DNA from: Nitrospira sp.
GTDB lineage: Bacteria; Nitrospirota; Nitrospiria; Nitrospirales; Nitrospiraceae
Reading direction: 5' to 3'
Assembly: GCA_024998625.1 (NCBI GenBank)
Contig: JACOEL010000021.1
Location: 114 to 64,113, forward strand
Length of the DNA: 64,000 nt
The position numbers were made by a program, and so were the translations under genes. Positions 4,865 to 57,870 of the stretch are shown here, one piece after another (position 1 is the first letter of the stretch; the number at the start of each line of letters is the position of its first letter). The notes beneath the pieces are model-generated. The model searched no databases and had not been told where the DNA came from. It worked only from the letters and a program-made list of their open reading frames with translations.

Positions 4865-5482
4865 CTAATCAAGCCGCCGGAAGCGCGCGGAGTATTCCTC
4901 ATGAGGAACCGGTGTGCTGAAGAAGGCGGATTTACTCTGATTCATGATGCGGGTCTTGACGAGCAGACTTCCGTCCCCTTCCAAGGTCAATTCCTGCGCG
5001 ATATCGGAAATGTTGCGGAGGGGCTCCTCGGCCACCCCACCTTCCGAACGTGTACGATGGATCCGGATCTGATTGCGATCACAGGTAACCCGATCCTCCG
5101 GCTGTAGATCGAGTTGATGGGCCGTGATGGCCCCATCGAACCGATTGACCAATTCCAGGGTGTCCTCATGCACCAATTCCACACGCACGGCCTCCTGGGC
5201 AACATCGGGGGGCACCGCGACACCGAGCATGGCATTCAACGTCAGTTTGTTATCCCGGTTGCGGTAAAAACTCATCGTGCCAGGGAGAGGTTCTCCTTGC
5301 AGCTCATAGGTTCCACCGATCTTCGGACAATCGGGCCATGCCAAACTCGGCTTCAAGGTCGGAGGCAACGGCGTGCCCGGTGACTGACAACCGGAGAGGC
5401 CGAGAAACCCCGCCAGCGCCAGCACAACGACACGCGCCCCAGTTGGAGCCTGTCGATGCATTGGGTTGGTCACAGCGCTCAT
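4865..5482 (-). CDS. Hypothetical lipoprotein
   Basis: Hydrophobic stretch ending in lipobox LSGC. Confidence 0.7.
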   Translation of the reverse strand: MSAVTNPMHRQAPTGARVVVLALAGFLGLSGCQSPGTPLPPTLKPSLAWPDCPKIGGTYELQGEPLPGTMSFYRNRDNKLTLNAMLGVAVPPDVAQEAVRVELVHEDTLELVNRFDGAITAHQLDLQPEDRVTCDRNQIRIHRTRSEGGVAEEPLRNISDIAQELTLEGDGSLLVKTRIMNQSKSAFFSTPVPHEEYSARFRRLD

Positions 5483-7477: not shown

Positions 7478-8512
7478 ATGTCGCGTTCGTCACTTGATTA
7501 CGTCACACGGATTGTGCGTGGTTCGATGGGCATGATGGCCGCCGTAAGTCTGGCCACAGGCATCTTCACGAACGAGGCGGCAGCCATCGAGGCCACGATG
7601 CTGGATCGCGCCAAACTGGCGACCATCGGTGTCCTGGAGGACACGCAAGACCAGCGCACGCCGGACAAACCGGGCAAGATTCTGGTGCGCGGAACCGGCT
7701 TTCATCTTCGCGACGGCTATATTGTCACGGCCCGCCACGCAGCGGAGAAGCACGATGTCACGACCGGCAGCGTCATTCAAAAACAGATCCGTATCCTGAC
7801 CACCGACCTCCATGAAATCCCCGCCGATCTTGTCGGCGACAGCGCATTCATGGACGTCGTGGTCTATCGCGTCGCCGAAGCCCATCGCGCCAAGTTGAGT
7901 GCAACTGTCTCGTTTGCCCTCGGCGACGTGCAACCGGGCCAGGAAGTCTTCACTGTGGGTTACCCCATGGGCTGGGGCCCGACCATGTCGTTCGGACACC
8001 TTGGCAATACGAACACCTTCCTCCAGACCGTGGACACCAGGTTGATTCAAGCCGATGTGGCCGCGTGCAGCGGCAACTCTGGCGGCGGCCTCTTCAACGA
8101 CAAGGGTGAAGTGGTCGGCATCATGCACGCCATCATCCAGACCGAACGGGACGACTCGACCGCACATTGCAGCCGGATGGCCTTTGCCATTCCCGCCATG
8201 CTGGCTGAACGGATCGTCACCGCCGCGCTGGACGGAAAGCCCATGACCTTCTCGAAGATGGGCATTCATATGGTCGCAGTGAAGGACGGCACAAGGTGGC
8301 GCATGGCGGTGAAAGACGTGATGGAACCGGCCAAGTCAGCCGGTATTGAGAAACACGACATCATCATTGCCGTGGATGGCACCGATATTCAGGATGCCGC
8401 ACATTTGAAGAACTATTTGATCGAACGAACCAAGCCCGGCCAACAAGTCAGTGTCAAGGTCCGCCGCATCGATACCAACCTGACGTTTACGGTGACGCTG
8501 GCGGGTGGATAA
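7478..8512 (+). CDS. HtrA/DegS-like S1C serine protease with one PDZ domain
   Basis: VTARH, D and GNSGG triad; C-terminal PDZ (DIIIAVDG..I); signal peptide. Confidence 0.9.
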   Translation: MSRSSLDYVTRIVRGSMGMMAAVSLATGIFTNEAAAIEATMLDRAKLATIGVLEDTQDQRTPDKPGKILVRGTGFHLRDGYIVTARHAAEKHDVTTGSVIQKQIRILTTDLHEIPADLVGDSAFMDVVVYRVAEAHRAKLSATVSFALGDVQPGQEVFTVGYPMGWGPTMSFGHLGNTNTFLQTVDTRLIQADVAACSGNSGGGLFNDKGEVVGIMHAIIQTERDDSTAHCSRMAFAIPAMLAERIVTAALDGKPMTFSKMGIHMVAVKDGTRWRMAVKDVMEPAKSAGIEKHDIIIAVDGTDIQDAAHLKNYLIERTKPGQQVSVKVRRIDTNLTFTVTLAGG

Positions 8513-36720: not shown

Positions 36721-37158
36721 CTATGGCTGAATCTTGAAGAGATTCTGGCACCAGCGCACGGCAGCTAGGACCTCATCAAACCGATCAAAGTCGACTGTCT
36801 TGTGGAACGTAATGGCGACATACTCATCATTCATATCCGTCTGCTCCGAGAATCCCGCCTTGAGGAGGGCCGGCCGTTTCTTGGACACCGCAGGACCCAG
36901 GAAATACTTGGCCTGTTTCGCCACTTCATCGGTTCCCAGATCTTCAGTTGTCCCATCGCACATCAGACTCTTCACATCGTCCATGGCGATTCCGTGCTGA
37001 CAGAGAAGTTGTCCATCAGACCGCACCTCCAACAACCACCCATCTTCCCCCAGATCAAGCGTCAGGGCTCCACCGGGCTCCAGCTCATAAAATTGCGGAA
37101 CCGTGCTCACTAGCCGTGTTCGAGCCTGTTCCCATGATGGAAGCGCGACGATATTCAT
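36721..37158 (-). CDS. Hypothetical protein
   Basis: 145 aa, start overlaps the stop of the upstream TPR gene. Confidence 0.75.
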   Translation of the reverse strand: MNIVALPSWEQARTRLVSTVPQFYELEPGGALTLDLGEDGWLLEVRSDGQLLCQHGIAMDDVKSLMCDGTTEDLGTDEVAKQAKYFLGPAVSKKRPALLKAGFSEQTDMNDEYVAITFHKTVDFDRFDEVLAAVRWCQNLFKIQP

Positions 37159-37979
37159 GCGCGTGACTCCCGCGGCTGGGGAGTCGGGTCTTCGGCGTCT
37201 AAACGAGCACGAAGCCGTTCGAGGCGAGTCACATTCTCGGCCAATTTAGGGAGATCGTACTTACGGTCCATACGCACAACCTGCTCCAGTAACTGAATGG
37301 CCATCTGCAGCTGACCCAAATCTTCGTAGCATTGGGCGAGAACGTAACGGGCACCGCCTGTACGCAGTTCATCTCGACTCCGTTCCGCGATTGATTGACT
37401 GGTATGGCAACAAGCGATGGCGTCATCATAGCGCTTTTGGATGGCAAAGGTCCGCCCCATCATCCGCCAGGCATCGGCGACGCCTCCTTGATTGTTGAGA
37501 CGGCGCATGAGCACCAGCGACTGCTCATAGTACCGTAACGCCTCTTCGAACTGGCCTGTTTCACGCGCCACCAAGCCGAGATCGGAAAACAGCACCGCCT
37601 TTCCCAGCTCGTCATGTACCCGCGTCATGATATCGAGCGCCTCAAGGTAATAGGCTCTCGCACGATCCCACTCCCCGGCGTCAGCACGGAGATTCCCCAG
37701 ATTGGCCAGAGTCGTCCCAATGCCCTTCTCGTCTCCCAAAACCTTCTGCAACTCCAGCACTTCCTGATAATAGCTCTGAGCCGACTCCCGGCGACCACTG
37801 ACCGCGCAAATGTTGCCAAGATTGCCCAACGTCGCGCTCAAAGCGCGATGATCACCGGTCAATCGATCACATTCCAGGGCCTTTGCATAACAAGCGTAGG
37901 CATCCGTATAGTGCCCGCGCGCAAAATGCTCGTTGCCCTGACGGTTGAGTTTCTCTGAGAGTCCGTTTCGAAGGGCCAT
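37155..37979 (-). CDS. Tetratricopeptide-repeat protein
   Basis: ~40-aa repeats (LGNLGNI, LANLGNL, FSDLGLV; A..YY...L). Confidence 0.9.
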   Translation of the reverse strand: MALRNGLSEKLNRQGNEHFARGHYTDAYACYAKALECDRLTGDHRALSATLGNLGNICAVSGRRESAQSYYQEVLELQKVLGDEKGIGTTLANLGNLRADAGEWDRARAYYLEALDIMTRVHDELGKAVLFSDLGLVARETGQFEEALRYYEQSLVLMRRLNNQGGVADAWRMMGRTFAIQKRYDDAIACCHTSQSIAERSRDELRTGGARYVLAQCYEDLGQLQMAIQLLEQVVRMDRKYDLPKLAENVTRLERLRARLDAEDPTPQPRESRA

Positions 37980-37985
37980 TGTTTC

Positions 37986-38582
37986 TTACACCTGAAGCGC
38001 CTGCTCAACAGCCTGCTTGGCTCCGAATACGATGCTAGCGCCATCGCCCACAAGAATCGAGTCGAAGTTATATTTCAACAAACGCCGAAGCCCGTCTCTA
38101 GCCTTCGTGATATCGCCATATTTTTCTGGAGCCAGGAGGCTCAAGCTTCCCGCCGGTTTGCCAATTAACGCATCGCCGACGATCAACACGCCCTTCCCCT
38201 GCTGAATGTACAATGCCGACTCACCCGGAGATTTTTGATCACTCAGGTGAATGACCCAAATACCGCCGGGCAACAACTCGCCGTCCTTGAATGTCTTGGA
38301 CGGCGTCACATCCATCTGCGCGACATCGGCCTCAGGCACCTGTAGCTGGCAACGAAAATCAGCCTGGTACGTCGCCGCCTCACGGACATGATCACGGTTG
38401 GTGAGAATGATGTAATCCAGGGCGCCCTGGCGCCGAACAAATGTGTGGGCGGCGGTCGTCATGGGCGGCGGATCAACCAGAATCTTATGTTCCCCCACAT
38501 TAAGAAACAGGCCGTTAAAATCGAGCTGCTTGTCTTCTGAAAACCAGGACCATTGCCAAATTCCGGGAAGGAGTTGTTTCAC
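37986..38582 (-). CDS. Metallo-beta-lactamase-fold hydrolase-like protein
   Basis: LVDPP, LTNRDH.R, SPG, VGDAL, LVGDG (degenerate metal motifs). Confidence 0.8.
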   Translation of the reverse strand: MKQLLPGIWQWSWFSEDKQLDFNGLFLNVGEHKILVDPPPMTTAAHTFVRRQGALDYIILTNRDHVREAATYQADFRCQLQVPEADVAQMDVTPSKTFKDGELLPGGIWVIHLSDQKSPGESALYIQQGKGVLIVGDALIGKPAGSLSLLAPEKYGDITKARDGLRRLLKYNFDSILVGDGASIVFGAKQAVEQALQV

Positions 38583-38606
38583 AGATATCGCCTCACGTGG
38601 ATGGGA

Positions 38607-38846
38607 TTACAACGCTGCCACCGCATCCTGGAGGGTCTTCGTGACCTTCGCACAGATGCCGGCTTCGCTGGGAAGATCGATGATATCGTCTTCCGAGAGG
38701 GTAATGAACTTCCGATTCGGCCCCTTCGTGAGGGAAATAAGGAACATGCTGTTTGTGGGCTTCGTCGGAATCACCACCTGAACGGTCTGATCAATACCCT
38801 GCACGACTTCCAGAAACTTCTGCTTTCCCTCTTCCCATTCGTCCAT
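38607..38846 (-). CDS. Small hypothetical protein (79 aa)
   Basis: AAAGAGG RBS, tight packing in operon. Confidence 0.7.
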   Translation of the reverse strand: MDEWEEGKQKFLEVVQGIDQTVQVVIPTKPTNSMFLISLTKGPNRKFITLSEDDIIDLPSEAGICAKVTKTLQDAVAAL

Positions 38847-38865
38847 GAATGATCCTCTTTTCCTG

Positions 38866-39411
38866 CTACATGGCTCCTGCGCCGGCTGGAGTCGAAGCTG
38901 CCAACAGCTTTTCCACTTCCTGGATGATGACCTCGGCACCTGCCAATTCCATATTGCCCACCCGCTGCCACCTGATCACACCGCGCTGATCGATGACATA
39001 CACATTGGGAATGAACTTCCCGCCTCCATACAGTTTGTCGGTGGTCTTATTCGGATCGAGCAAATAGGGGTAGGTTACCTTCACGGGAAAGGCACTCAAG
39101 AATTCGCCCACGCCCCGTTTGGAATCCCCCGACGAATTGACCCCGACGACGGCCACATTTTTCCCAGCCATCGCCTCATGGACCTTTTGCAGATTGGTTC
39201 CTTGGGTCATACAGGGGTCACAAATATGAAACAGCCCGAGGACCACCACTTTCCCCTTTAACTGCTCAAGCGAAACCGCATCGCCTGTTACGGACGTCAA
39301 CGAGAAGGCCGGCGCCGGCTCGCCGACCTTAAAAAACCCGGCGGCGACTACAAGGTGGGCAGCCCACAGGTGGACGAATATGATCGCAACCGCTATGAGA
39401 ACTCGCTTCAT
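38866..39411 (-). CDS. Exported TlpA/AhpC-TSA thioredoxin-like protein
   Basis: Signal peptide, G..APAFSL, CxxC (CDPC), P.VYVID..G.IR. Confidence 0.85.
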   Translation of the reverse strand: MKRVLIAVAIIFVHLWAAHLVVAAGFFKVGEPAPAFSLTSVTGDAVSLEQLKGKVVVLGLFHICDPCMTQGTNLQKVHEAMAGKNVAVVGVNSSGDSKRGVGEFLSAFPVKVTYPYLLDPNKTTDKLYGGGKFIPNVYVIDQRGVIRWQRVGNMELAGAEVIIQEVEKLLAASTPAGAGAM

Positions 39412-39601: not shown

Positions 39602-40897
39602 TCAACCGGAGCTCTGCAACCACCGCACGACTGCTTCACGCATCCGGACAGAAAGAATCCATTTGGCGATAGTCCGATGAAACGGCTTCAAACAAGTGGC
39701 CAGGATACGAAGTCGTCGTTGAAACCGGAACCAGGGCAACGAACGGGTGAGCACTTCTGCTTCCGCACGACAGAGCGCGACCCCAAGTTTCCACCGCTCA
39801 AGCCAGGAATCCTTGAGAGTCATGTACAGAGCCTCCGCACAATCTTCATCAATCCCATAACGAGGATTCTTCAGCAGCAGCTTAGGCATCTTTCGAACGA
39901 GGACGGGGATGTCGCCATCTGCCTCGATCTCCTGAAGTATCGTCCGTGGGACTGCGGTATCGAACAGGCTGTGAGCCATCGCCAGGCCGAGCAGGACCAA
40001 CCGTCGACATCTCCACTCGCCTGCCTGAAACAACACACGACTCCAATCTAACGCCGGCCGCCGACGCACGAGCTCCGCCACATCGCACACCCACTTCAAC
40101 TGCTCCCACGCATGTTTTGCCCCATGCACGCAGAGAAGGATCAACAGATCCTCAGGGCAGAGCCCCATCACCGACTTTGTTGGTAAGTGAACGGGTTTCA
40201 GTCTTCCCCAAAACGCGCTCCGATCAAGCCGAAATCCGAAATGTCGGCGAACCATCACCGACTGAAGATCGACCGCAACGATGCCGTTTCGTCTTTGGAA
40301 AAAGTGATACGGCTCCCCTGACTCCTCCCTGCCACCCATGTCCTGGCTGGTCAGTTGATACCCCTGAGACCATAAGACTTTCCGAGCTTGGGGAATCGCT
40401 CCCTGCTCAACAATCAAATCAATATCTGCACATTCCCGTAAACCTAGGTCGCCATACGCCGTCTGTGCAAGCGTGACGCCTTTAAAGGGAATCGCCATCA
40501 CTCCCTTCGCTGCCAACGCGTCGAGTAGCGACACGAGTTCTTTCGCCAGCAACGTATTGAGAAGCGCATTCGCCTGATTGTGACGGCGGAAGGCTTCGTG
40601 GATAGCCGAAGGCACCGCAGCAGGACAAATCGCAACCAGATTGCGGTACACCAGTGGCGCCACTCCATGGGCTCTGGACAGCCGCCAGACCAGTCCCCAA
40701 TCAATTCCATCACAGGCCAGATCCGCCACTTCGACTCGAACAAACTCATCCACCGTCGTTCGCGCACAGAGTACGAGTAAGCGCCCCTCCGCACGCATGA
40801 GGGACAAACCTGGCGCCGGTGTTGTCCCCTTACGCGAAATACCTCCCAGGCGAGAGGAGTTCCATTGTGCGATGGTGGACCCAGGACGCCGCCCCAT
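39602..40897 (-). CDS. Nucleotidyltransferase (NTP_transf_5-like, lasso-cluster type)
   Basis: IPFKG..LA..AYGD.GLR...DIDLIV, VDLQ, LCVHGAKH.W..LKW.CD. Confidence 0.88.
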   Translation of the reverse strand: MGRRPGSTIAQWNSSRLGGISRKGTTPAPGLSLMRAEGRLLVLCARTTVDEFVRVEVADLACDGIDWGLVWRLSRAHGVAPLVYRNLVAICPAAVPSAIHEAFRRHNQANALLNTLLAKELVSLLDALAAKGVMAIPFKGVTLAQTAYGDLGLRECADIDLIVEQGAIPQARKVLWSQGYQLTSQDMGGREESGEPYHFFQRRNGIVAVDLQSVMVRRHFGFRLDRSAFWGRLKPVHLPTKSVMGLCPEDLLILLCVHGAKHAWEQLKWVCDVAELVRRRPALDWSRVLFQAGEWRCRRLVLLGLAMAHSLFDTAVPRTILQEIEADGDIPVLVRKMPKLLLKNPRYGIDEDCAEALYMTLKDSWLERWKLGVALCRAEAEVLTRSLPWFRFQRRLRILATCLKPFHRTIAKWILSVRMREAVVRWLQSSG

Positions 40898-40898
40898 G

Positions 40899-41939
40899 TC
40901 AGTTCTCTCTCCTTCCTTGCCGCATCCCCAGAAGAGGTGTTACCAGCCATGGCAACTCCAAGACATCGCGTCCGAAGTGGAGTCGGTAACAGTCTGCCTG
41001 CTCGACCAATCGCACAAGCGCTTGAAACTCCAGGCGCGCCACCTCGGCGTCATACACCAGCAAGGAATGCGGAAGAATCATTTCCAATGCTACCTTCTTG
41101 GACAAGGGCTCCAGGCAACTATGCGAGGAATTGACCACCTCGGGAAAGAGGATCACGCTTGGCTCGCAAGGCTGACCTAATGGCCCCGGATACATATCCT
41201 CGACATTGAAATAGCGCTTGGGGACACCTGCATGCAGGACAGATGGCGGAGCCTCTCGCAATTCGGGAAAGAACGATACGGTGTGATCGGTCACGTTGAT
41301 CTTCAGCGGATACGGGAGGATCTCCACGCGTGTGCCGCTGATCCGAAAAAATGGGTGGTCATCGGAGAGGTAACGATACCCTGATCTCAGTAGTGATAGG
41401 AACGAGGTGGTTTTCCCTTGCCCACTGAAACCAGGAATCAGCACCCCCCGCCCCATGTGCTCCAGGGCGGTGGCATGAAACGTATACAATCCTCGCCGCT
41501 TCAGTAGTTCCGTCATGGCGAAATGGACAAAACTCACTCGGATATCCGGTGCCATAGTCTCCGGTTTCACCAAATACCCCTGGACAGATGGCGAAGCCCC
41601 ATCGATGACGACCAGGCCTTCTTCATGAAAGTCAGCAATCAACAGTCCCTGTTCTGAGTAGATGTCGCACAGCCATGTCGTCCGTCGATCAGGACCAATC
41701 ACGAGGCCAGAACCGCTGTACAACAGTTTCGCCGAACCAGAAACCCTAACAGGAACATCCCCTCGTCGCTCGACCGCGTCGAATTCCATCAGCATCGGTT
41801 GAGCCACAGTGGTGGCGAGTTGAAAGTGATGGAATAACGCCTCAACGGAATGTGCCAGCTCGGACGAATTGGTGGTGAATTTCATCTCTATGCCATGGAC
41901 AGAGAGTAGAAGTTCTTTCGTTATCGACGTCATGAACAT
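40899..41939 (-). CDS. HPr-kinase-like P-loop kinase (lasso-cluster type)
   Basis: FHATAL, GVLIPGFSGQGKTT (Walker A), YLSDD. Confidence 0.85.
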   Translation of the reverse strand: MFMTSITKELLLSVHGIEMKFTTNSSELAHSVEALFHHFQLATTVAQPMLMEFDAVERRGDVPVRVSGSAKLLYSGSGLVIGPDRRTTWLCDIYSEQGLLIADFHEEGLVVIDGASPSVQGYLVKPETMAPDIRVSFVHFAMTELLKRRGLYTFHATALEHMGRGVLIPGFSGQGKTTSFLSLLRSGYRYLSDDHPFFRISGTRVEILPYPLKINVTDHTVSFFPELREAPPSVLHAGVPKRYFNVEDMYPGPLGQPCEPSVILFPEVVNSSHSCLEPLSKKVALEMILPHSLLVYDAEVARLEFQALVRLVEQADCYRLHFGRDVLELPWLVTPLLGMRQGRREN

Positions 41940-41995
41940 TCACGCGTCTCCTTTTCAACCTTTCGTCCACCGCCATCGCCTTACCGCTCTAGAAC

Positions 41996-42026
41996 GAGCT
42001 GGCCGGTCTGATTCACCGGCCAGCTC
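41996..42026. terminator. Perfect 12-bp stem-loop downstream of the precursor gene
   Basis: GAGCTGGCCGGT-CTGATTC-ACCGGCCAGCTC; no U tract on the minus strand. Confidence 0.65.
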
Positions 42027-42053: not shown

Positions 42054-42167
42054 CTAGCTGATTCTTTGATCCACCACGCGGGACAGCTGAATAGCCGTCA
42101 CGTCGCGCAGCAACTCATGCTTCACGAGCGCCGGCTTGACGTACACGATTTTCTTCTGTTGCTCCAT
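42054..42167 (-). CDS. RiPP precursor, lasso-type leader: MEQQKKIVYVKPALVKHELLRDVTAIQLSRVVDQRIS
   Basis: Translated by hand; AAAGGAGGTGA RBS overlapping the RRE stop; YxxPxL(x9)T leader spacing; sits between RRE and kinase. Confidence 0.88.
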   Translation of the reverse strand: MEQQKKIVYVKPALVKHELLRDVTAIQLSRVVDQRIS

Positions 42168-42173
42168 TCTGAC

Positions 42174-42491
42174 TCACCTCCTTTCAATCTGAAGTAATCC
42201 CTCCTGCTCCAAATGCACGATCAAATCCAACACATCGTCCTGAGCCTGCTGTGCAGACACGTCAAATCTGGCACAGATTGCTGAGTGAATCTGCCGCAAC
42301 GACTGCTCCCCTCTGCACAAATCCCAAATGGTTGATCCGACGACATTGAGCGTGTAATAGCGGCCGGAGTTCAGATTCAACAGCACACTTTCACCATCGA
42401 GAACCGTGCTGTGGACCTGTTCATCCTGCCTGGGAAATACTTCGGATAATTCGAACTGACGCTCACTCCACAGATGCACAGTGGCAGGCAT
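42174..42491 (-). CDS. PqqD-family RiPP recognition element (lasso B1/E protein)
   Basis: CAGGAG RBS; VLLNLNSGRYYTLNVVGSTIWDLC.G..SL.QI...ICARFDV....A..DV..LI..L.QEGLL. Confidence 0.92.
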   Translation of the reverse strand: MPATVHLWSERQFELSEVFPRQDEQVHSTVLDGESVLLNLNSGRYYTLNVVGSTIWDLCRGEQSLRQIHSAICARFDVSAQQAQDDVLDLIVHLEQEGLLQIERR

Positions 42492-42863
42492 ATAGATGCT
42501 CCTGGTTCAGATTGTTGGGGATTTGTGACTGCTCCGATAGCACCATTCGTTCTAAAACTGATTCTTCCTCGAAGTCTTGGTCTCCCCACAAGCAAGACGT
42601 GTACATCACTGCAAGACAAGGGCGAAACTATCGTCATCACGTCCGTTTCTCTATCCCCAGTGAGATTGGGCTCCACCTCCCTTTGGGGGATCCGGATTTT
42701 GCTTTTATGGAAACGGATGAAAAAAGCGTGCAGATGAGGCCGCTGACGAGTTTCAAAGCCGAACTTGTCAGCTTGATTCACGCAGACGCACAGGAAAGAC
42801 TCAATTCTCTCAGGCCCGCCATGTCCAGCCGACCCCAAAAGACGGTAATGTGCAGAGGAGATC

Positions 42864-55307: not shown

Positions 55308-56330
55308 ATGACACAGCGCAAACACACACACGACTCGGATTCTCACGCAAACCTGGACGAAGACATCGACGCCATCGAACCCGAGGCTCTGGAGCCGACG
55401 GACGAAGAGGTTACGGAGGAACATGAGGCAGCCGACCGCCAGCCGGCGAAAGAGCCGCAGGAGGCTCCGCTTTCGACCTCTCTGGTCCCGGTCACCACAC
55501 TCCAACAATACCTGACAGAAATCCGCCGATATCCCTACCTCAGCAAGGAAGAAGAACTCCGGCTCTTCGAGGAATATCAGCTCCGGGGCAGTCGTGATGC
55601 GGCCATGAAGCTCATCCTGGCCAATCTGCGAGTCTCCGTCTCCATTGCGTCGGAGTACCTGCATACCGGCGCCGACCACATGGATTTGATTCAGGAGGGC
55701 AACGTCGGCCTGCTCCAGGCAATCAAGAAATTCGACCCCACAAAGAATGTCCGCTTTTATGCCTACGCGGCCTGGTGGGCGAGGGCTTACATTCTTCGGT
55801 ACCTGCTGAACACGTACCGCCTCATCAAGGTCGGCACGACCCAGGACCAGCGCAAGCTCTTCTACAACCTGAAGAAAGAAAAGGCCAAACTCGAACGGGA
55901 AGGCTTCGCGCCCGACAGCAAACTCCTGGCGGATCGCCTCAACGTGCGCGAACGCGATGTCATCGAAATGGATCAACGGCTGGGCAGCTGGGAACTGTCG
56001 CTCGACCAGCCCATCGGCCAGGAAAACGACGGCACGCTCATGGATATCCTGCCCGCGCATGAGCAGCCGGCGGACGAAAAGCTGGCCGATACCCAACTTA
56101 AAGCGCTATTCCGGAAGAAGCTGGCCGAATTCACAAAGACTCTCGATGAGCGCGAAGAAGATATCTTGCGTAACCGCATCCTCTCCGAGACACCTTTGAC
56201 CCTTGAAGACATGGGCGACAAATACGGCATCACCAAAGAACGTACCAGGCAGCTGGAAGCGCGGATCATCAAACGCCTCCGTGACTACATCAAAAAGGAT
56301 GTAAAGGACTTTGACCGCCTGCGGATGTAG
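55308..56330 (+). CDS. rpoH: RpoH/sigma-32-family RNA polymerase sigma factor
   Basis: LILANLR, DLIQEGN.GL, RpoH box QRKLFYNL, T.ER.RQLE. Confidence 0.85.
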   Translation: MTQRKHTHDSDSHANLDEDIDAIEPEALEPTDEEVTEEHEAADRQPAKEPQEAPLSTSLVPVTTLQQYLTEIRRYPYLSKEEELRLFEEYQLRGSRDAAMKLILANLRVSVSIASEYLHTGADHMDLIQEGNVGLLQAIKKFDPTKNVRFYAYAAWWARAYILRYLLNTYRLIKVGTTQDQRKLFYNLKKEKAKLEREGFAPDSKLLADRLNVRERDVIEMDQRLGSWELSLDQPIGQENDGTLMDILPAHEQPADEKLADTQLKALFRKKLAEFTKTLDEREEDILRNRILSETPLTLEDMGDKYGITKERTRQLEARIIKRLRDYIKKDVKDFDRLRM

Positions 56331-57870
56331 GACGGCGACCTTCTTCAGAATCGCCATCGCCGGCTTCCTACTGGCGGCGGTCGGCGAAACCGTTTCACCC
56401 GTCCGCTCACTCGCCGACTCTCCCATCACCCGGGAAAATGCCCGACCAGGCGATGCCGGCTGGGTACTCACCGACCCGGCCGAACGTGAGGTTGAAGGAT
56501 ATGCCTCAGCCACCAGCATCCAGCGCGGGGACACACTCCACTTCTACATCCACAGCACCGACCCACGTATCACTGTCGCCATCTACCGGATGGGTTGGTA
56601 TGCGGGTGCCGGAGCCCGGTTGGTCCAAGGCGGCATTTCGCTTCCAGGAGTTCGACAACCGATGCCCACGGCAGACCCGGTCACCGGACTCATCGAATGT
56701 CAGTGGCAGGTGTCGTTCACGCTCAGCACGAAAACGGAGGAGCCCGGCGAATGGCTGAGCGGCATCTACCTCGCCAAGTTGACTGGCACGAGCAGCGGCA
56801 AACAAAGCTACATTATCTTCGTCGTCAGGGAAGATGACCGGCCGGCCGACTTTTTGTTTCAGTCCAGCGTCACGACCTTCCAGGCGTACAACAACTGGGG
56901 CGGCAAATCGACCTACCCCTCGAACAGCCGCGATGAACAATGGGCGCGGAAAGTCTCGTTCAACCGTCCCTATGCCGCCAGCCAACACCCGCGGGGCGCT
57001 AGCGGAACCGGAGCGGGAGAGTTCCTGACCGCCATGTCGATCCACCCGACCCGCTCCCTCTCGACCGCCGGGTGGGAATACAACATGGTGCGGTGGCTGG
57101 AACGTAATGGCTACGACGTCACCTACAGCACCGATATCGACACCCATAGCCGACCCGGTTTCTGGAAACAGCACAAGGCTTGGCTGTCGGTCGGCCACGA
57201 TGAATACTGGTCCGATGCCATGCGACGCCATATAGAGGCGGCCCGCGACCAGGGCCTGGGACTCGGCTTCTTTTCCGCCAATACCTGTTACTGGCAGATC
57301 AGGCTCGAACCCAGCCCATTCACGGGTGAACCAAATCGGACCTTGGTATCCTATAAGGAAGTCGCCCTGGCGGAAGACCCCTATGCCCTGGATGGCGATC
57401 CGTCCAACGACCACCTGATCACCGTTCAATGGCGCGACCAGCCGCTGAACCGACCCGAACACAAGCTACTCGGCGTGATGTTTGAGACCGTCCCGGTGGA
57501 CGGAGACCTGATCATCACCCAGCCATCCCATTCGCTGTTTAATGGTGTCCCGCTGCCTTCGGATCATCGCCTGCCCGGCCTGCTAGGATACGAGATCGAC
57601 CGGGCATTCCCAGACGGGCCGGCGGAGCTGGAGATCCTTGGCCATTCTCCCCACCAGCGGAATGGACAGGTCGTGTATGGTGATATGACCCTCTACCAAG
57701 CCCCGAGCGGGGCCCACGTGTTCGCGACAGGAACCATGCAGTGGAGTTGGGGGCTGGATGACTACAATGCGCCGGCGCTGCGAACCGCTCGCACCAGTGA
57801 AGCCGCTCAACAGATTACCCGCAATGTCCTGGAACTCCTGACTCGGAAGACGCCCCCGTCTGCTCAATAA
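56311..57870 (+). CDS. Exported N,N-dimethylformamidase beta-subunit-like (DUF6605-like) protein; start uncertain
   Basis: ENARPG, EGYASA.S, QAYNNWGG.S.Y, VSFNRPY, SVGHDEYWS, GNT-like SANT, FATGTMQWSWGLD. Confidence 0.8.
   Translation: MTACGCRTATFFRIAIAGFLLAAVGETVSPVRSLADSPITRENARPGDAGWVLTDPAEREVEGYASATSIQRGDTLHFYIHSTDPRITVAIYRMGWYAGAGARLVQGGISLPGVRQPMPTADPVTGLIECQWQVSFTLSTKTEEPGEWLSGIYLAKLTGTSSGKQSYIIFVVREDDRPADFLFQSSVTTFQAYNNWGGKSTYPSNSRDEQWARKVSFNRPYAASQHPRGASGTGAGEFLTAMSIHPTRSLSTAGWEYNMVRWLERNGYDVTYSTDIDTHSRPGFWKQHKAWLSVGHDEYWSDAMRRHIEAARDQGLGLGFFSANTCYWQIRLEPSPFTGEPNRTLVSYKEVALAEDPYALDGDPSNDHLITVQWRDQPLNRPEHKLLGVMFETVPVDGDLIITQPSHSLFNGVPLPSDHRLPGLLGYEIDRAFPDGPAELEILGHSPHQRNGQVVYGDMTLYQAPSGAHVFATGTMQWSWGLDDYNAPALRTARTSEAAQQITRNVLELLTRKTPPSAQ

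Follow-up and report, generated by a model that had tools for sequence, protein, structure and literature searches.

A conserved Nitrospira gene for a predicted lasso-type precursor peptide in a cluster without a lasso cyclase

Introduction

What does a gene cluster make when it carries the leader-processing proteins of lasso peptide biosynthesis, and a small open reading frame (ORF) with a lasso-type leader, but no enzyme to close the ring? This question is raised by a 37-codon ORF on the minus strand (positions 42054-42167) of a 64,000-nucleotide stretch of Nitrospira sp. DNA (contig JACOEL010000021.1, positions 114 to 64,113; the whole stretch is called the window here). The ORF lies between a gene for a PqqD-type recognition element (RRE) for RiPPs (peptides that are ribosomally synthesized and later modified post-translationally) and a gene for a HprK-like kinase. 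The analysis described below leads us to regard the ORF as encoding the precursor of a RiPP whose pathway descended from kinase-containing lasso clusters, works without a cyclase and yields a linear product with a modified Ser29, a reading that we hold with moderate rather than high confidence.

Results and Discussion

The ORF is a genuine gene with a lasso-type leader

The ORF and the translation given by the initial annotation (MEQQKKIVYVKPALVKHELLRDVTAIQLSRVVDQRIS) match the minus strand of the window exactly. The strong ribosome-binding site that it had noted is also present: AGGAGG lies 9 nt upstream of the ATG, which itself follows the stop codon of the RRE gene by 6 nt, and the sequence GAAAGGAGGTGAG is kept upstream of the first peptide gene in the loci of Nitrospira lineage I, where the window is placed because its kinase is 87% identical to that of Candidatus (Ca.) N. 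defluvii. As the AGGAGG directly adjoins the stop codon with which the PqqD gene ends (TGA, 42174-42176), translation of the RRE and peptide genes is probably coupled.

The leader motif alone would not identify a gene. When the window was translated in all six frames, the bare pattern Y..P.L.{9}T appeared a single time, compared with 0.68 occurrences expected from shuffled sequences, which is not significant, and small ORFs are common, with ~170 ORFs of at least 30 aa overlapping the surrounding 16 kb. We therefore judged the ORF from its context and its conservation. A locus scan of species-representative genomes with the kinase alignment gave 75 related loci (numbered with the prefix L below), to which one from Nitrospira sp. 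KM1 was added. The 75 scanned loci all belong to Nitrospira, Nitrospiraceae or Nitrospirota, save for one Nitrospinota metagenome-assembled genome (MAG) and one unclassified bin. Homologous peptides were then collected from these loci by tblastn and a motif (regular expression) scan. This collection of small ORFs beside the kinase gene, which had been proposed as a check of the prediction, returned 108 homologues (102 distinct peptides) from the 76 loci, 1 to 5 per locus, with the leader conserved. Over 17 leader codons of 25 distinct lineage-I genes, the summed column entropy was 3.1, 1.7, and 16.6 for codon positions 1, 2, and 3, respectively. Variation is thus nearly confined to third positions, strongly pointing to purifying selection on this reading frame. 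The 37-codon ORF is a genuine gene under purifying selection, transcribed in relatives, and encodes a predicted precursor peptide. Its description as unannotated holds for function but not for the gene call, since public collections already list the exact peptide and its orthologues as "hypothetical protein" (e.g., WP_255458538.1 of Nitrospira sp. KM1).

The spacing of the leader, Y9-x2-P12-x-L14-x3-E18-x5-T24-A25, fits the lasso pattern YxxPxLx3Gx5Tx with Glu in place of Gly, as had been claimed, and the 102 homologues conserve it (family consensus M..(Q)KKE.Y..P.L..HELLRD(I/V)T(A/G)). Beyond the leader, the cores of the family are hypervariable; a fixed leader followed by a hypervariable core is the classic pattern of RiPP precursors. 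The lineage-I cores read x-Q-L-S-R-V-(V/L/I) and then continue into a variable tail 3-7 aa long, the whole core measuring 9-14 aa (n = 24). Both the coordinates and the homologues agree with the placement of a precursor gene between the RRE and kinase genes.

Among the closest known parallels is the bsf cluster (BsfA/B1/B2/C/D/K/N) that Duan et al. (2023, PMC10368454) described in Bradymonas sediminis FA350, which shares with the window a discrete PqqD-type RRE, a B2 peptidase, a HprK-like kinase and a nucleotidyltransferase. Its precursor BsfA (...LIYKKPQLTYHSTLAAIIR|GTSGNEVD..., the bar marking the start of the core) carries YxxPxL at -17 to -12 and His at -9, the same as the window peptide, and this YxxPxL register is that of other lasso leaders as well (PMC10368454). 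Cleavage after Ala25 puts Tyr, Pro and Leu at -17, -14 and -12 of the Nitrospira peptide. The alternative cut after Thr24, which had also been considered, is disfavoured as it is the cut after Ala25 that restores this register. The BsfA core starts with GTSG, and several of the Nitrospira relatives start with GTSG or GQSG.

An internal serine is the probable site of modification

The peptide gene is the third of five on the minus strand, in the order B2 peptidase, RRE, peptide, HprK-like kinase and NTP_transf_5 nucleotidyltransferase (Table 1). We propose that the 25-residue leader would bind, through Tyr-17, Pro-14, Leu-12 and Thr-2, to the RRE encoded directly upstream, which would hand the peptide to the HprK/PEPCK-fold kinase for phosphorylation of Ser29 (core Ser4). 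The NTP_transf_5 enzyme would add a hexose or a nucleotide to the phosphate, or else to the hydroxyl, and the RRE-dependent B2 cysteine protease would cut after Ala25, to leave the linear 12-mer IQL(S*)RVVDQRIS with no macrolactam ring and no threading. The order of the steps, the Ser29 site, the chemistry of the nucleotidyltransferase and the biological role of the product are what we infer from these comparisons.

Judged by the catalytic residues that they retain, the kinase, the nucleotidyltransferase and the B2 protein look active. In the B2 protein, Cys71 (GNCFPRA) and His105 (GHAWL) are at least 95% conserved among 49 homologues; the protein passes the NCBIfam lasso_biosyn_B2 model (NF033537) with 53.5 bits for a cutoff of 33, and its catalytic stretch is 40% identical to that of BsfB2. 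The RRE aligns with BsfB1 over 92 aa at 33% identity (E 2e-13), and its best NCBIfam match, lasso_PqqD_Bac at 63 bits, is under the cutoff of 80 for that family. Kinase residues H155, G170, G173, G175, K176, T177, D193 and D194 align with the BsfK motif H...GxxGxGK[ST]...DD, described by its authors as conserved and catalytically important (PMC10368454). All eight are at least 95% conserved in 78 homologues and invariant except for H155 and T177. An AlphaFold2 model of the kinase (pLDDT 78.5) gave PEPCK and HPrK/P as top Foldseek matches, and a profile search of the Protein Data Bank (PDB) matched only the active-site stretch of HPr kinase.

In the nucleotidyltransferase, K139-G140 and D158-x-D160 (KG...DxD) are at least 95% conserved in 64 homologues. 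A profile search of PDB sequences with this protein returned nothing meaningful and no solved PF14907 relative. The ATG of its longest ORF overlaps the kinase stop codon (window 40897-40901); the first ~37 residues are unconserved among homologues, with conservation beginning near residue 38, and the sequence suggests that the true start may be Met34. By analogy, PsmN of the pseudomycoidin cluster is likely a functional counterpart of this enzyme: PsmN, a member of an uncharacterized nucleotidyltransferase family, is required for phosphoserine to receive one or two hexoses of 162 Da, and its DxD pair is essential (PMC6993621). BsfN is uncharacterized (PMC10368454).

The choice of Ser29 rests on the family as a whole. 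Of the 102 peptides, 101 have a Ser, Thr or Tyr as the third or fourth core residue, in the contexts x-x-x-S-R (lineage I), x-x-S-G (type 2) and x-K-Y-(R/K) (type 3; the types are described below), and at position 3 the subtypes outside lineage I carry Ser (~50/102) or Tyr (25/102). BsfK phosphorylates Ser3 of the BsfA core and not its C-terminus; the reaction depends on the leader and is much accelerated by the RRE BsfB1, which also aids BsfB2 in leader removal (PMC10368454). The initial annotation had taken the terminal Ser of the window peptide as the kinase target, but a C-terminal Ser occurs in only 6 of the 24 lineage-I orthologues and 11 of the 102 family peptides, with the kinase and nucleotidyltransferase conserved regardless. 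Given the near-universal hydroxyl at position 3 or 4, the rarity of a C-terminal Ser and the BsfK precedent, the modified residue is probably internal (Ser29, in the motif QLSR).

A functional link between kinase and peptide is supported by its loss. Three MAGs keep a kinase remnant between purF and the redoxin gene (L067:152-1288, L073:927-2066 and L075:883-1953), where the peptide, RRE, B2 and nucleotidyltransferase genes have been lost. These kinases are full-length and ~46% identical, with His155 changed to Tyr and the P-loop Lys176 to Arg. The kinase motif has decayed only where the peptide is gone, and the remnants may be retained pseudokinases.

Several observations weigh against this proposal. 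The alignment of the window kinase with BsfK spans only the 42-residue active-site stretch, and the kinase is under the cutoffs of every curated HprK-like family (21.9 bits for Pfam Hpr_kinase_C; 54.8 bits for NCBIfam HprK_rel_A and 48.4 bits for HprK_rel_B, with cutoffs of 200 each). The Ser of the window and lineage-I cores is at position 4, offset by one from Ser3 of BsfA and from the Ser/Thr at core position 3 that marks a Bsf-type substrate. The PF14907 membership of PsmN or BsfN is not confirmed by sequence. BsfK did not accept an S3Y substrate (PMC10368454), yet a third of the Nitrospira relatives carry Tyr at the equivalent position, so the hydroxyl may undergo a different chemistry. 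The scope of the cyclase search and the origin of the RNA data, given with those results below, count on the same side.

The tyrosines would also fit another division of labour, in which the NTP_transf_5 enzyme directly nucleotidylates (e.g., AMPylates) the Ser or Tyr hydroxyl and the HprK-like protein activates a small-molecule donor, acts as a scaffold or phosphorylates elsewhere. The fosfazinomycin pathway provides a precedent, with kinases that activate a small molecule and a nucleotidyltransferase that then ligates it to a peptide, and the chemistry of PsmN is itself unresolved (PMC6993621). We find this unlikely as the K enzymes from lasso-type clusters have, wherever tested, proved to be peptide kinases; moreover, the Tyr-type cores are found only in the subtype with ATP-grasp and FA_hydroxylase genes and may follow a different chemistry.

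The case for the C-terminus is somewhat weaker, and we consider it improbable. It would make the window peptide a paeninodin-type product, unthreaded and phosphorylated by the HprK-like kinase on C-terminal Ser37, with the nucleotidyltransferase decorating the phosphate as in pseudomycoidin. The window peptide does end in Ser, and PadeK, ThcoK, SyanK and PsmK act on the C-terminal Ser of the linear precursor (PMC8498205, PMC6993621), before leader removal in the case of paeninodin and pseudomycoidin; PsmN hexosylates the C-terminal phosphoserine (PMC6993621), and the pairing of K and N genes is the same here. The Ser targeted by those kinases is conserved, however, whereas here it is not: the N. 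defluvii peptide, for example, ends in ...DRTPA, and the catalytic residues of the kinase and nucleotidyltransferase are intact also where the peptide has no terminal Ser. The paeninodin and pseudomycoidin clusters, in addition, hold cyclases and make macrolactams. Phosphorylation of the internal Ser29 followed by elaboration thus remains the preferred reading.

The cluster has no lasso cyclase

No Asn-synthetase-like cyclase was found in the 64-kb window, where the only SGGxDS PP-loop is that of guaA and the Asn_synthase domain was absent from the ten other large ORFs scanned with Pfam. We also considered purF as a disguised Asn-synthetase-like cyclase and rejected it, as the protein is a full-length match to the purF model TIGR01134 (555 bits). 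A cyclase was likewise absent from the 76 Nitrospira loci and from 8 outgroup loci, over ~8-10 kb each, the rest of these genomes not having been searched. Across the Nitrospira clusters, lasso-type leader processing (B1/B2) is present and the lasso-forming enzyme is absent.

The core gives the same picture. An Ile at position 1 and a tail of only four residues, both present in the window peptide, are not typical features of lasso cores. Its Asp8 could in principle close a ring, but an Asp or Glu is found at core positions 7-9 in only 9 of the 24 lineage-I cores, another 9 have no acidic residue at all, and Asp8 was therefore judged incidental. BsfA, in contrast, has Gly1 and Asp8 for ring closure, with Ile at -2 where the window peptide has Thr, and its cluster encodes a lasso cyclase and an ABC exporter; the window has neither, and conserves instead the Ser at core position 4. 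The window locus hence has the leader motif, the RRE and the B2 peptidase of a lasso cluster but neither the cyclase nor a lasso-like core. Since none of the homologous loci examined has a cyclase and the acidic residue is not conserved, we do not regard the window peptide as a lasso peptide; a short linear chain that carries its modification on an internal Ser is the most likely product. The earlier doubt about threading is borne out more strongly than it had been put.

A true lasso or branched-cyclic peptide with an Ile1-Asp8 ring would require a cyclase encoded elsewhere in the genome. Asp8, the lasso-type leader, B1 and B2 are in its favour, as is the fact that the search covered loci and not whole genomes; with 84 related loci and the window empty of cyclases and the core as described, we consider this very unlikely. 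The window cluster also has no ATP-grasp gene of the kind expected for a graspetide-like RiPP, and lineage-I (window-type) loci have no linked exporter.

Transcription and the 3' stem-loop

In contigs of three wastewater metatranscriptomes from one study, the PqqD and peptide genes are covered at a depth of 150-400; these are assembled contigs from related strains, not reads of this strain, and are supporting rather than decisive. Coverage is zero upstream of ~42516, dips at 41938-42005 just past a stem-loop, recovers at the 5' end of the kinase gene, and drops to 20-70 deeper within it. This fits an abundant RRE-peptide transcript with partial read-through. From the coverage, its start is probably near 42500, where a scan for sigma-70 promoters found no consensus.

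The GC-rich stem-loop (GAGCUGGCCGGU-N7-ACCGGCCAGCUC) follows the last peptide gene in 18 of 18 lineage-I loci, and both of its arms differ in sequence in three of these (L012, L013 and L017). It has no U-tract and was not reported by a terminator scan. It could be an attenuator or a 3'-end stabilizer that sets the ratio of precursor to enzymes. That the ORF itself is no substrate, but the decaying remains of a lasso cluster since lost, or else a regulatory leader peptide or an attenuator acting on the kinase operon downstream, would agree with the strong stem-loop, the drop in RNA coverage there and the lack of cyclase and exporter, but is made highly improbable by the genus-wide purifying selection on the leader, the 1 to 5 paralogous copies per locus with diversified cores, the conserved catalytic residues and the decay of the kinase motif only where the peptide was lost.

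Genomic setting and distribution

The cluster (Table 1) sits amid housekeeping genes, with purF, purL, purQ, purS and purC upstream and redoxin, metallo-beta-lactamase (MBL)-fold and tetratricopeptide repeat (TPR) genes downstream. The downstream block (window 36721-39411, minus strand) encodes a redoxin, a Lactamase_B_5 protein, a 274-aa TPR protein and a 145-aa protein without family match. In most relatives it also has an O-methyltransferase gene, and its position is held in essentially all Nitrospira loci, whatever the cluster type. These five genes were rejected as members of the cluster as they are constant across cluster types and absent from the outgroup cassettes. Further away, and unrelated to the cluster, the window encodes on the plus strand (56311-57870) a 519-aa protein with a N,N-dimethylformamidase beta-subunit-like C-terminal domain (DMFA2_C, 7e-118).

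Table 1. Coordinates of the peptide gene, its parts and the genes and elements of the cluster in the window, and of the outgroup precursors in their own loci.
Feature	Position	Strand	Remarks
B2-type leader peptidase, 146 aa	42864..43304	minus	transglutaminase-like Cys protease; Pfam Transglut_core3, 6e-19
Intergenic gap	42492..42863	minus	probable RRE-peptide transcript start near 42500 (metatranscriptome coverage)
PqqD-family RRE, B1-like, 105 aa	42174..42491	minus	Pfam PqqD (PF05402), 1.4e-19
Shine-Dalgarno sequence AGGAGG of peptide gene	42177-42182	minus	within last codons of PqqD gene
Precursor peptide ORF, 37 aa	42054-42167	minus	ATG...TAG
Leader, residues 1-25, MEQQKKIVYVKPALVKHELLRDVTA	42093..42167	minus	Y-17, P-14, L-12, H-9 and T-2 near-invariant in 102 peptides
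Predicted core, residues 26-37, IQLSRVVDQRIS	42057..42092	minus	follows predicted cleavage after Ala25
Codon of Ser29 (core Ser4)	42081..42083	minus	proposed modification site; Ser in 24/24 lineage-I peptides
Stop codon of peptide gene	42054-42056	minus	TAG
GC-rich stem-loop, 12 bp	41996..42026	minus	82-nt region folds at -40.2 kcal/mol, z = -4.1
HprK/PEPCK-fold P-loop kinase, 346 aa	40899..41939	minus	precomputed Pfam PF27840 "ScmC"
NTP_transf_5 nucleotidyltransferase, 431 aa as longest ORF	39602..40897	minus	Pfam PF14907, 1.6e-66, 225 bits
Outgroup precursors	L079:8047-8121; L080:8096-8236; L082:~7848-7910; L084:~5161-5235; L086:~5135-5209		

The 76 Nitrospira loci show three architectures, all at one syntenic position flanked by purF and the redoxin gene. 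Type 1, that of lineage I with the window and N. defluvii, consists of B2, RRE, one or two peptide genes, kinase and nucleotidyltransferase. Type 2 has the order RRE, peptide, kinase, nucleotidyltransferase, B2 and ABC transporter, and type 3 (e.g., KM1) the order B2, ABC transporter, unknown protein, ATP-grasp, RRE, peptide, kinase, FA_hydroxylase and nucleotidyltransferase. The larger loci (L076, Nitrospira sp. KM1 AP022671, 4990-13342; also L028, L035, L038, L039, L043 and L056) add the ABC transporter, an unknown 338-aa protein, the RimK-like ATP-grasp and the FA_hydroxylase. Their cores (e.g., QKYREKTSDK...) are rich in Lys, Glu, Asp, Ser and Thr, a composition that suggests extra cross-links or hydroxylation. 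Some genomes carry two tandem cassettes with up to five precursor genes. RimK/MvdD-like ATP-grasp genes were found only in type-3 relatives and in outgroup loci L078 and L081.

The kinase family is large, with 10,084 representative clusters at E values up to 1e-3 and 282 at E values up to 1e-30, and the cyclase-less cassette was met again around distant kinase relatives (the 8 outgroup loci). Five of these were examined: three have kinases grouping with Thermoanaerobaculia/Acidobacteriota and two are unassigned metagenome contigs. Three of the five have an operon of RRE, B2, kinase and NTP_transf_5, the other two having no linked NTP_transf_5 gene. A small precursor ORF lies upstream of the kinase in all five and, where the start is clear, is 24 aa long (e.g., MKKTYRKPSLRRLGLLRQITR|FSF). 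The leader is of the canonical lasso type in four, including the Gly that is Glu in Nitrospira, and divergent in L082. The core consists only of Phe-Ser-Phe, with its one Ser close to the cleavage site. Lasso formation is impossible with three residues, and the predicted product would be a modified tripeptide. The lasso B2 cutoff is passed by every B2 protein tested, namely, that of the window and those of three outgroup loci; all the kinases tested are below the curated HprK_rel_A, HprK_rel_B and ScmC cutoffs, the outgroup kinases scoring 21-33 of 125 against ScmC. One Acidobacteriota contig also carries a separate PqqD system 2.5 kb upstream, with ScmC-like, PqqD and radical S-adenosylmethionine (SAM)/SPASM genes (L084:384-2787).

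Relation to known systems

Other cassettes, defined computationally, combine a PqqD chaperone with a HprK-fold protein, as here, namely, the HPr-rel-A, GeoRSP and SynChlorMet (ScmC/ScmD) systems of NCBIfam/TIGRFAMs. These have radical SAM enzymes or no B2 peptidase, and a product is described for none. The window RRE scores 33 of 100 against ScmD and has no match to TIGR04353 at E 0.01 or better. In the RRE-Finder study, about half of the "discrete lasso RRE" hits had no peptidase and cyclase beside them and were taken as possible false positives (Kloosterman et al. 2020, PMC7470986). The window RRE would probably be classed with these orphans, although its cluster does keep the peptidase and lacks the cyclase; no cassette of B1, B2, kinase and nucleotidyltransferase, nor any precursors, are described in that paper.

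Our literature search found no description of a cyclase-less B1/B2/kinase/nucleotidyltransferase cluster or of Nitrospira RiPP precursors, an earlier mention being possible in key subscription papers outside the search. The cluster is probably a RiPP system built from lasso parts, in a variant without published description, and it has a fair chance of being recognized as a RiPP class of its own. Such a class would join B1 and B2, uncoupled from the cyclase, to a kinase and nucleotidyltransferase that attach a group through a phosphodiester to a Ser or Tyr lying two to four residues away from the new N-terminus. It would reside at a fixed site beside purF in most Nitrospira and extend to Acidobacteriota (Thermoanaerobaculia), with a modified Phe-Ser-Phe as the entire product there. 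This seems to us an evenly balanced prospect.

Conclusions

For the enzymology of RiPPs, the cluster indicates that the lasso B1/B2 machinery can operate without a cyclase. Its relatives form a natural series of substrates, with cores of 3 to 40 residues, for the study of RRE-directed peptide kinases, and could also help to settle the chemistry of PF14907, the probable family of the PsmN-like enzymes found in lasso clusters. Where a genome-mining tool makes a cyclase obligatory, such clusters are dropped or their RREs are counted as false positives.

Nitrospira are the main nitrite oxidizers in wastewater treatment and soils and include the complete ammonia oxidizers. To our knowledge, almost nothing has been reported on peptide signals or antagonism in these bacteria. 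A leader that stays fixed while the cores are hypervariable suggests a strain-specific signal or competition factor, and this conserved and transcribed locus, with its strain-variable cores, is a concrete candidate for signalling or antagonism in Nitrospira.

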